DNA from: Alphaproteobacteria bacterium
GTDB taxonomy: Bacteria; Pseudomonadota; Alphaproteobacteria; UBA828
Assembly: GCA_963667785.2 (NCBI GenBank)
Contig: CAXXMU010000002.1
Coordinates: 480,001-544,000, forward strand
Length of the DNA stretch: 64,000 bases
Reading direction: 5' to 3'
This document shows positions 52,177 to 52,380 of the stretch, one piece after another. The first letter of the stretch is position 1. The number at the start of each line of letters is the position of its first letter. The translations under genes were made by a program, and so were the position numbers. The notes under the pieces were generated by a model that worked only from the letters and a program-made list of their open reading frames with translations, ran no database searches and had not been told where the DNA came from.

Positions 52177-52380
52177 ATGATCAAAGAGACCGTGATTGCC
52201 GTCAGCGTCGTGACCATGGCGGCGGGCGCCGCGCTTGCACCCTCCGCCGTCTCGGCCGCCGACCAGCCGATTGTCGTCGCATCGTGTAATCCCTGCGATC
52301 CGTGCGGCGCTTGCAATCCCTGCGATCCGTGCGGCGGTTGCAATCCCTGCGACCCCTGCAATCCGTGCGCCAGCGGCTGA
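52177..52380 (+). CDS. Secreted cysteine-rich peptide with (Cxx)10 repeat
   Basis: [39 protein letters not shown] signal, then [40 protein letters not shown]; followed by its own terminator. Confidence 0.8.
52285..52368 (+). repeat. 27-bp in-frame tandem repeat (about 3 copies) built from 9-bp TGYnnnnnn units
   Basis: TGTAATCCCTGCGATCCGTGCGGCGCT / TGCAATCCCTGCGATCCGTGCGGCGGT / TGCAATCCCTGCGACCCCTGCAATCCG / TGC. Confidence 0.9.

Follow-up and report, generated by a model that had tools for sequence, protein, structure and literature searches.

A predicted exported ten-cysteine peptide of an alphaproteobacterium shares its NPC/CxPC module with arms of putative periplasmic haem proteins

What is a free-standing bacterial gene for, when its product consists of an export-type N-terminus and a short tail with a cysteine at every third position? 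The question is raised by a 64,000-nucleotide stretch (hereafter the window) from the genome of Alphaproteobacteria bacterium (UBA828; GenBank assembly GCA_963667785.2, contig CAXXMU010000002.1, positions 480,001 to 544,000). Window positions 52177..52380 on the forward strand encode a peptide of 67 amino acids by translation, from an ATG at 52177 to a stop codon at 52378-52380. Ten cysteines occupy residues 37-64 with all nine gaps equal to three residues, and seven of the triplets are CxP, as a sequence-only reading of the window had described; these triplets create seven overlapping CxPC motifs, four of them CNPC. Here we show that the NPC/CxPC module is common to free peptides of this kind and to the arms of predicted periplasmic P460-like and SoxA/TsdA-type haem proteins. 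Four features had escaped the sequence-only reading: a second copy of the gene, a CNPC-armed P460-like protein of the same genome (P0046), a home locus with DUF6969 and FGE-like genes, and cytochrome fusions across bacteria.

A protein search with the window peptide retrieved 44 homologues at E ≤ 0.01, with lengths of 48-115 amino acids and a best value of 5.8e-28. Fourteen public loci come from metagenome-assembled genomes (MAGs) titled Rhodospirillales or Alphaproteobacteria bacterium. Within the order, the peptide is present in 33 of 49 genomes with one to four matches each; it was found in 32 of 43 genomes of family f1 (the own genome not counted), in none of the five genomes of family f2 and in all 20 genomes of genus g1. 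When 1.84 billion representatives were searched with a profile, 148 matches were obtained at E ≤ 1e-3, 28 of them at E ≤ 1e-10. The matches share one layout, in which a signal and a short hydrophobic element are followed by NPC, NPCNPC or CNPC units, mostly separated by A-A-K spacers; the profile included the signal, so the N-terminal likeness among the matches is partly a selection effect. Taking at least three NPC units behind an export-type N-terminus as the definition of the family, the window peptide is a member. No Pfam or NCBIfam model matches the peptide above cut-off, and the ESM Atlas returned unnamed clusters (best score 0.85) and no structure for it. AlphaFold2 gives no confident fold (predicted local distance difference test, pLDDT, 44.7), and the polyproline-II-like backbone proposed in the sequence-only reading stays conjectural. 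A search of the accessible literature found no mention of the repeat strings of the family, 'CNPC' included; what it matched for the NPC motif or repeat was unrelated, for instance CENP-C and aquaporin-11. The exported NPC/CxPC cysteine-repeat peptides are an undescribed family.

The spacing of the cysteines was compared across 39 distinct full-length peptides of the clade, after nine frameshifted or truncated entries (P0010, P0023, P0027, P0031, P0034, P0038, P0041, P0042 and P0045) had been dropped. These peptides are 58-118 amino acids long and contain 7-18 cysteines. The earlier expectation that homologues would keep the cysteine phase holds for 346 of the 388 gaps, which equal three, and fails for whole peptides, of which 15/39 are pure (Cxx)n. 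The paralogue in the own genome has gaps of 3, 3, 2, 3, 2, 3, 2 and 3, and a strict (Cxx)n phase was rejected as the defining trait. A cysteine at every third position is a real feature of the clade within blocks, though not an invariant one, and the defining unit is NPC/CxPC. In four loci (L012, L013, L014 and L015, each from base 6001) the module is doubled or tripled, giving peptides of 85-118 amino acids in which an I-V-V-A-D strand, three to four CNPCxx units and an acidic spacer follow one another in repeated order. Seven of the dropped entries (P0010, P0023, P0027, P0031, P0038, P0042 and P0045) leave their frame inside the repeat and read, for instance, Q-P-V/L-Q-P. Frameshifts, slippage or faulty assembly of the tandem tract may account for these switches.

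The same module was found on larger proteins. The search of the own genome for paralogues that had been proposed earlier yielded one, at G000:C1:588798-588995, 83% identical to the window peptide, and in addition P0046, encoded at about 583.4-584.7 kb of G000:C1 (L003:502-1788, minus strand). Besides a signal, this protein has about 195 residues with 41 CxPC motifs in two blocks, and literal CGPC units occur in it. A further domain of P0046 matches Cytochrome_P460 with 24.2 bits, just under the Pfam cut-off of 27, and contains a CAECH haem site. Four further P460 fusions (P0049, P0050, P0052 and P0056) were identified, and the three of them that were scanned with Pfam scored 22.3-27.6 bits. 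The Pfam scan covered 30 of the 148 profile hits, namely 25 hand-picked long ones and five short ones. SoxA/TsdA cytochrome c domains were found in 12 of the 30 at E ≤ 0.01, nine of these above the Pfam cut-off; the remaining domains were P460 in three proteins, LysM in two, and YHS, YceI, DUF5666 and DUF6789 in one each.

Several traits of the armed proteins were recorded alongside. The P460-type fusions (P0046, P0049, P0050, P0052 and P0056; L037, L041, L043 and L055) have a common N-terminus, K-x-L-L-S-T-T-V-x-P, which is unlike the leader of the free peptides and is followed by a Gly/Val-rich hydrophobic stretch, and a C-[VA]-V-P-R-L segment lies in the middle of the arm. In P0051, P0053 and P0106, the last two assigned by eye, the CNPC repeats precede a domain of roughly 100 residues at the C-terminus; the Pfam scan of P0051 gave no match. 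P0054, P0055 and P0057 (231-273 amino acids) consist of CNPCD/CGPCD units with hydrophobic spacers, a likeness that may reflect either kinship or convergence, and two of them are labelled Thermoguttaceae and Planctomycetaceae.

The paralogue lies at the home locus of the family. It is convergent with a DUF6969 gene (273 bits); P0046, a cytochrome c and an exported protein of the FGE-sulfatase family are all encoded within 6 kb. Two synteny classes can be told apart among the related MAG loci. Class A (WIN, L009 and L019) has the context of the window, and class B has the order CysQ, peptide, DUF6969, FGE-like, CNPC::P460, cytochrome c and APRT. DUF6969 occurs in 33/33 peptide-positive genomes of the order versus 5/16 peptide-negative ones, and the own genome has one such gene. 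The distance between a peptide copy and DUF6969 is less than 1 kb in 28 of the 33 genomes and 3.3-5.5 kb in four, and in one genome the two are on different contigs. Across the sampled Alphaproteobacteria, DUF6969 is present in 90 of 401 genomes (89 of 400 without G286, which is flagged as unpublished). Among 30 alphaproteobacterial DUF6969 loci inspected over ±1.5 kb, 13 have an open reading frame (ORF) with at least three NPC units, 14 an FGE-like orthologue, six a cytochrome c and four a P460-type domain. In 21 DUF6969 loci inspected over ±7 kb, a P460-type cluster member was present in 11, and either this or an NPC ORF in 14. Other neighbours in the 21 loci are a PAS histidine kinase (8), DUF2336 (7), cytochrome c (7), an FGE-like protein (6, by clustering), TRAP/TAXI transporters (4-6), Sulf_transp (4) and a signal-bearing, periplasmic rhodanese (4). 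The family is tied to this home locus of DUF6969, FGE-like, CNPC::P460 and cytochrome c genes. The window copy, by contrast, stands apart as a dispersed paralogue, its upstream promoter-like block retained.

Based on these observations, the reading that we rank first, with a probability of roughly 0.4, is that the peptide would be a diffusible free multi-thiol shuttle for the armed haem system. In this mechanism the Sec system would export the small pre-peptide and the signal would be cleaved, leaving in the periplasm an acidic, unstructured tail of about 40 residues with ten thiols. The cysteines would alternate between a thiol and a disulfide (or persulfide/thiosulfonate) state, and by this means the peptide would deliver electrons or sulfane sulfur to the CNPC-armed P460-like protein and the neighbouring cytochrome c, or take them up from these. 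All of this chemistry is proposed from sequence. The shuttle was placed first because of the disordered multi-thiol tail, the export signal, the presence of the module on haem proteins and the cytochrome c at the locus, and also because of the occasional rhodanese and sulfur-transporter neighbours and because many armed haem proteins belong to a type that forms S-S bonds with the cysteine of a carrier. The rhodanese and Sulf_transp genes, each in 4/21 loci, are hints at sulfur, and the upstream DNA common to the dispersed and home copies may hint at co-regulation.

Several findings weigh against the shuttle. Linkage is partial, as an NPC ORF is present in only 10 of the 21 DUF6969 loci at ±7 kb, and the window copy itself does not adjoin DUF6969 and has no partner gene nearby. 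The number of cysteines is even in 26/39 clade peptides and odd in 13/39, so full intramolecular disulfide pairing is no rule. The mature part has a median net charge of -7 in the 39 clade peptides, whereas 85 small profile matches have a median of +4, only seven of them being negative; acidic tails in the clade, set against mostly Lys-rich relatives, fit cation binding better than the carriage of anionic sulfur species. Neither SoxY (PF13501) nor a SoxA/TsdA-type cytochrome was found in the genome, and its sole Sulf_transp gene is 260 kb distant from the peptide gene, so that a sulfur role cannot lean on a Sox system here. The RNA runs searched contain just 0.04 of the sampled words and give no transcript evidence.

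The charge of the tail leads to the second-ranked explanation, a periplasmic metallothionein-like sink in which ten thiolates and an Asp/Glu-rich tail would buffer Cu(I), Zn, Cd or Hg. We consider this unlikely, while holding it above the other alternatives. The dense CxxC/CxPC spacing and the acidic mature part (median -7 in the clade) agree with it, and so do the fusion of the NPC-repeat protein P0132 to a YHS (seleno)protein domain (NF041384, 146 bits) and the invariant His cluster of DUF6969. Canonical FGE enzymes use copper, which would also fit; the FGE-like neighbour, however, is closer to ToxD, CalU17 and OvsA than to true FGEs. Against a metal role, no metal-handling family (efflux, sensor or chaperone) recurs among the neighbours in the 21 DUF6969 loci or lies beside the window gene, most fusion partners are haem domains (in 15 of the 30 scanned proteins) with YHS appearing once, and no metallothionein model is among the Pfam matches of the peptide at E ≤ 10. 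Membership of the metallothionein family models was accordingly rejected. Bacterial metallothioneins and copper storage proteins share with the peptide a high density of cysteines and CxxC spacing, whereas the peptide is predicted to be exported and not cytosolic, has no metal-gene context and has no match to these families.

A third explanation concerns the two conserved partners, DUF6969 and the FGE-like protein. DUF6969 (L025:7920-8681, plus strand) has no signal peptide and contains invariant His/Trp-rich motifs with a His cluster. Its AlphaFold2 model has a pLDDT of 77.3 and a predicted template modelling score of 0.82. This model has no match to the PDB in Foldseek at E ≤ 0.001, and a wide VIA structure search gave short helical matches only (best Z 7.1 over 57 residues). 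A search of the DUF6969 sequence against the PDB gave a best E of 0.37, a search of the accessible literature found no mention of the family, and a complex prediction of DUF6969 with the peptide gave no verdict (score 0.00). The FGE-like protein (L025:4773-5636, plus strand; orthologues in L027-L053) is exported and 59-81% identical across alphaproteobacterial families. It matches ToxD (5.7e-25), CalU17 and OvsA better than true FGEs (about 1e-12). Of 24 distinct C-terminal segments of FGE-like proteins, 22 have a CG[IV]C pair after GGSW, which appears to be placed where true FGEs have their catalytic cysteines; the two segments lacking it belong to an unlinked paralogue (L023) and a cluster-linked orthologue (L074), the latter with CGVY.

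Given these partners, the peptide could be a modified-peptide precursor, with the FGE-like protein, the cytoplasmic DUF6969 or both acting on its cysteines and the I-V-V-A element serving as recognition sequence. We regard this as doubtful and rank it third. Every CxP triplet fits the first three positions of the C-x-P-x-R site of FGE, and FGE-like orthologues (59-81% identical) stand beside DUF6969 in 14 of the 30 loci, with CG[IV]C in 22/24 segments. The leader and the strand element are conserved and the core is hypervariable, and the strand element recurs ahead of each cysteine block in multi-block forms. Ribosomally synthesised and post-translationally modified peptides (RiPPs) with a Sec signal have a precedent in the bufferins (PMC11626156, PMC12452194). 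Against a precursor role, the peptide and DUF6969 genes are convergent and not co-transcribed, the window copy is unlinked to either partner gene, the repeats also occur on large folded haem proteins, an unusual setting for RiPP cores, and DUF6969 has neither a recognisable fold nor a match resembling a RiPP recognition element. The conservation of the leader is also not unique, since the signal of the cytochrome c is nearly as conserved (90.6%). A wider version, in which free peptides and arms alike would be substrates of a new cysteine-modifying pathway outside the MNIO and radical-SAM routes, with the FGE-like protein acting on C-x-P and DUF6969 as its His-rich partner, is in our view more doubtful still; such a pathway would define a new ribosomal peptide class, carrying for example formylglycine or cross-linked cysteines.

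The established RiPP routes were examined directly. The sequence-only reading had suggested maturation by an MNIO/DUF692 or radical-SAM enzyme and had remarked that no maturase gene is adjacent. The second remark holds, as the flanking genes encode an ABC1/UbiB kinase and a PALP-fold enzyme. The suggested maturation finds no support: MNIO (PF05114) has no match in the 98.1%-complete genome, in a search whose control found the family in Caulobacter, and the genome likewise lacks SPASM (PF13186), the domain taken here as the sign of a radical-SAM peptide maturase. The absence of both excludes the known RiPP routes. No DUF2282, BUF or EGKCG-type precursor signature was found for the peptide in Pfam/NCBIfam at E ≤ 10, and the freyrasin-like model NF037957 scored 11.7 bits versus a cut-off of 30.

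Membership of known classes was assessed on the same evidence. Bufferins and oxazolins are Cys peptides that bear a Sec signal, are modified by MNIO enzymes and chelate copper (PMC11626156, PMC12452194). They resemble the window peptide in being small Cys-bearing precursors in which a Sec signal takes the place of a classical leader, and in being destined for the periplasm; they differ in that the window genome has no MNIO and the peptide no DUF2282 or EGKCG-type match, and the peptide was not assigned to them, as both PF05114 and the precursor domain signature are lacking. NPC, P460 and DUF6969 do not occur in the MNIO landscape paper (PMC12452194). Freyrasin-family ranthipeptides (NF037957) share a weak compositional match to the Cys/Asp-rich core, and membership was rejected because the score is below cut-off and SPASM is absent. 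SoxY of SoxYZ offers a functional parallel: its thiol, placed on a flexible segment in the periplasm, bears sulfur intermediates and works with a c-type cytochrome, SoxAX (PMC5336275), and NPC arms are joined to SoxA/TsdA-type domains in 12/30 scanned relatives. Unlike the window peptide, SoxY is folded and has one carrier cysteine, and the two have no sequence similarity; assignment to SoxY-type carriers was rejected in the absence of PF13501, of a Sox system and of any Pfam match for the peptide.

Among the closest likenesses is that to the NPC/CNPC-armed cytochromes, which have the same NPC/CxPC unit after an export signal and a short hydrophobic element, with significant profile similarity. 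The window product differs from them in having no folded domain and an acidic, Lys-free tail, most relatives having AAK spacers. The arm module has no Pfam or NCBIfam model, and no paper on it was found in the literature search. C-x-P-C, which occurs seven times in the window peptide, resembles the active site of thioredoxin (C-G-P-C). The peptide has no thioredoxin fold (pLDDT 44.7, no Pfam match), and many NPC relatives, such as P0132, contain single NPC units and no CxPC. The N-P-C unit may presumably act as a thiol-activating helix N-cap.

The leader comprises residues 1-27 (codons at 52177..52257, plus strand), with a Lys-bearing start, a hydrophobic core reaching an 11-residue Kyte-Doolittle mean of 2.24, and then A-V-S-A, after which the Sec signal is probably cleaved, pointing to a periplasmic location. 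Mean pairwise identity of the leader is 95.7% over 45 pairs, versus 51.2% for the signal of the FGE-like protein at the same loci. Since the cytochrome c signal at these loci is conserved to 90.6%, a conserved leader was not accepted as proof that a dedicated partner recognises it. The leader is followed by an acidic stretch and the strand-like I-V-V-A (codons 28-36, 52258..52284, plus strand). In the survey of relatives, a strand-like motif lies within 14 residues ahead of the first NPC in 36/39 clade peptides and 52/85 broader ones, and in the duplicated and triplicated forms (L012-L015) it recurs ahead of every cysteine block.

The peptide gene is real and under purifying selection. Its 27 leader codons differ from those of 15 homologous genes by 189 synonymous and 29 non-synonymous changes in 405 codon comparisons, which are not independent. 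The Asn of NPC is kept via both of its codons over 16 genes (AAT 25, AAC 60), which indicates selection at the protein level. Contigs from four metagenome runs (X1, X2, X4 and X5; X2 is labelled sponge metagenome) were compared with the window. The X1 contig equals the window exactly; over about 500-750 nt, those of X2, X4 and X5 depart from it at 12, 19 and 31 positions, with variable flanks and an almost invariant ORF. Listed differences inside the 204-nt ORF number zero for X2, zero for X4 (7 of its 19 differences being unlisted) and one for X5, 52259 C>G, which gives Ala28Gly. AAT, the rare Asn codon, accounts for 25/85 NPC asparagines and for 4/4 in the window gene, versus 6/63 Asn in seven neighbouring genes.

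The core DNA is a tandem repeat of period 27 at 52288..52359 (plus strand; 2.7 copies, 93% matches, score 123 in Tandem Repeats Finder), as the sequence-only reading had seen, and its units encode NPCDPCGAC, NPCDPCGGC and NPCDPCNPC. It lies within the cysteine core (codons 37-64, 52285..52368, plus strand), which comprises the ten cysteines, with four CNPC and three CDPC motifs. In a six-frame scan of the whole genome (4.09 Mb, 69.7% GC), only three loci have at least two CNPC or at least three CxPC, and the repeat is therefore not a compositional accident. The suggestion that the number of repeat units could change is upheld across relatives, which range from 58 to 118 amino acids and 7 to 18 cysteines, and not within the populations sampled: no indels in the repeat tract were found in the contigs of the four runs, a weak negative as contigs drop rare variants.

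A variable repeat number is also known from surface and secreted repeat proteins, and a structural or host-facing product, such as a disulfide-stapled rod or a lipid-anchored or released peptide with no catalytic partner, was also weighed. The near-identical contigs in the sponge-metagenome run X2 would agree with it, as would a lipobox-like V-A-S-C ahead of the first cysteine. In the window peptide, however, V-A-S-C sits 15 residues past the hydrophobic core, and a lipobox-like triplet is kept in just 11/39 clade peptides and 28/85 broader ones; the lipoprotein reading was rejected on both grounds. The odd cysteine count in 13/39 peptides and the association of the family, in many Alphaproteobacteria, with genes for intracellular and periplasmic partners also argue against a structural product, which we hold to be the least probable of the explanations, and very improbable.

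The DNA around the ORF contains putative expression signals. The ribosome-binding site (RBS) GAGGAGAGG lies at 52162..52170 (plus strand), with the ATG 6 nt downstream, and its GGAG core is invariant in 13 aligned upstream regions. In the ORF listing the frame begins farther upstream, with a TTG at 52006. As the probable start we prefer the ATG at 52177 because of the RBS and because the listed homologues begin with the same Met, except P0007 and P0047, which have upstream extensions. The alignment of 13 upstream regions from both synteny classes has invariant columns at window positions 52069-52071, 52092-52094 and 52097-52098. They outline a block (CTT, about 20 nt, CCAnnAT; 52069..52098, plus strand) that may act as a promoter. 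The dispersed and home copies share this block and the RBS, so the duplication probably carried the regulatory region along. A consensus scanner for promoters and terminators, sigma-70 consensus included, found no sites around the peptide gene. The ORF ends with the codons of a C-terminal A-S-G and a TGA stop (52369..52380, plus strand). Downstream, a hairpin at 52399-52435 with a T-run (52399..52436, plus strand) resembles an intrinsic terminator; it has a folding energy of -31.5 kcal/mol (z -3.60), equalled by none of 200 shuffles. The earlier description of a 67-residue ORF with an RBS, a Sec-type N-terminus and its own terminator is thus borne out by translation, hydropathy and RNA folding.

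The ABC1/UbiB kinase gene lies upstream (50544-51890, minus strand), with pntAB apparently farther upstream, as judged from our reading of the translations. The PALP-fold gene lies downstream (52536-53549, plus strand) and is followed by an alpha/beta hydrolase gene; we take its product to be an ACC deaminase, Pfam giving PALP only. A 939-aa open frame at 52095..54914 (minus strand) runs antisense to the peptide gene and the PALP-fold gene. It was treated as a GC-rich artefact opposite the PALP-fold gene and not as a gene.

If the shuttle reading is true, many Alphaproteobacteria and other bacteria would have an unstudied periplasmic thiol system composed of flexible multi-cysteine arms and free peptides. 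This system would serve P460-type and SoxA/TsdA-type haem proteins, with DUF6969 and FGE-like proteins as conserved partners, and would bring a new type of carrier or redox mediator into the sulfur, nitrogen-oxide or metal chemistry of the periplasm. The Pfam family DUF6969 would in this case gain a function. The free peptide of 40 residues is the simplest experimental handle on the system. For annotation, genes of 58-118 amino acids with low-complexity cysteine repeats are easily overlooked or mis-framed, as the several database entries of the family that are frameshifted in the repeat illustrate.

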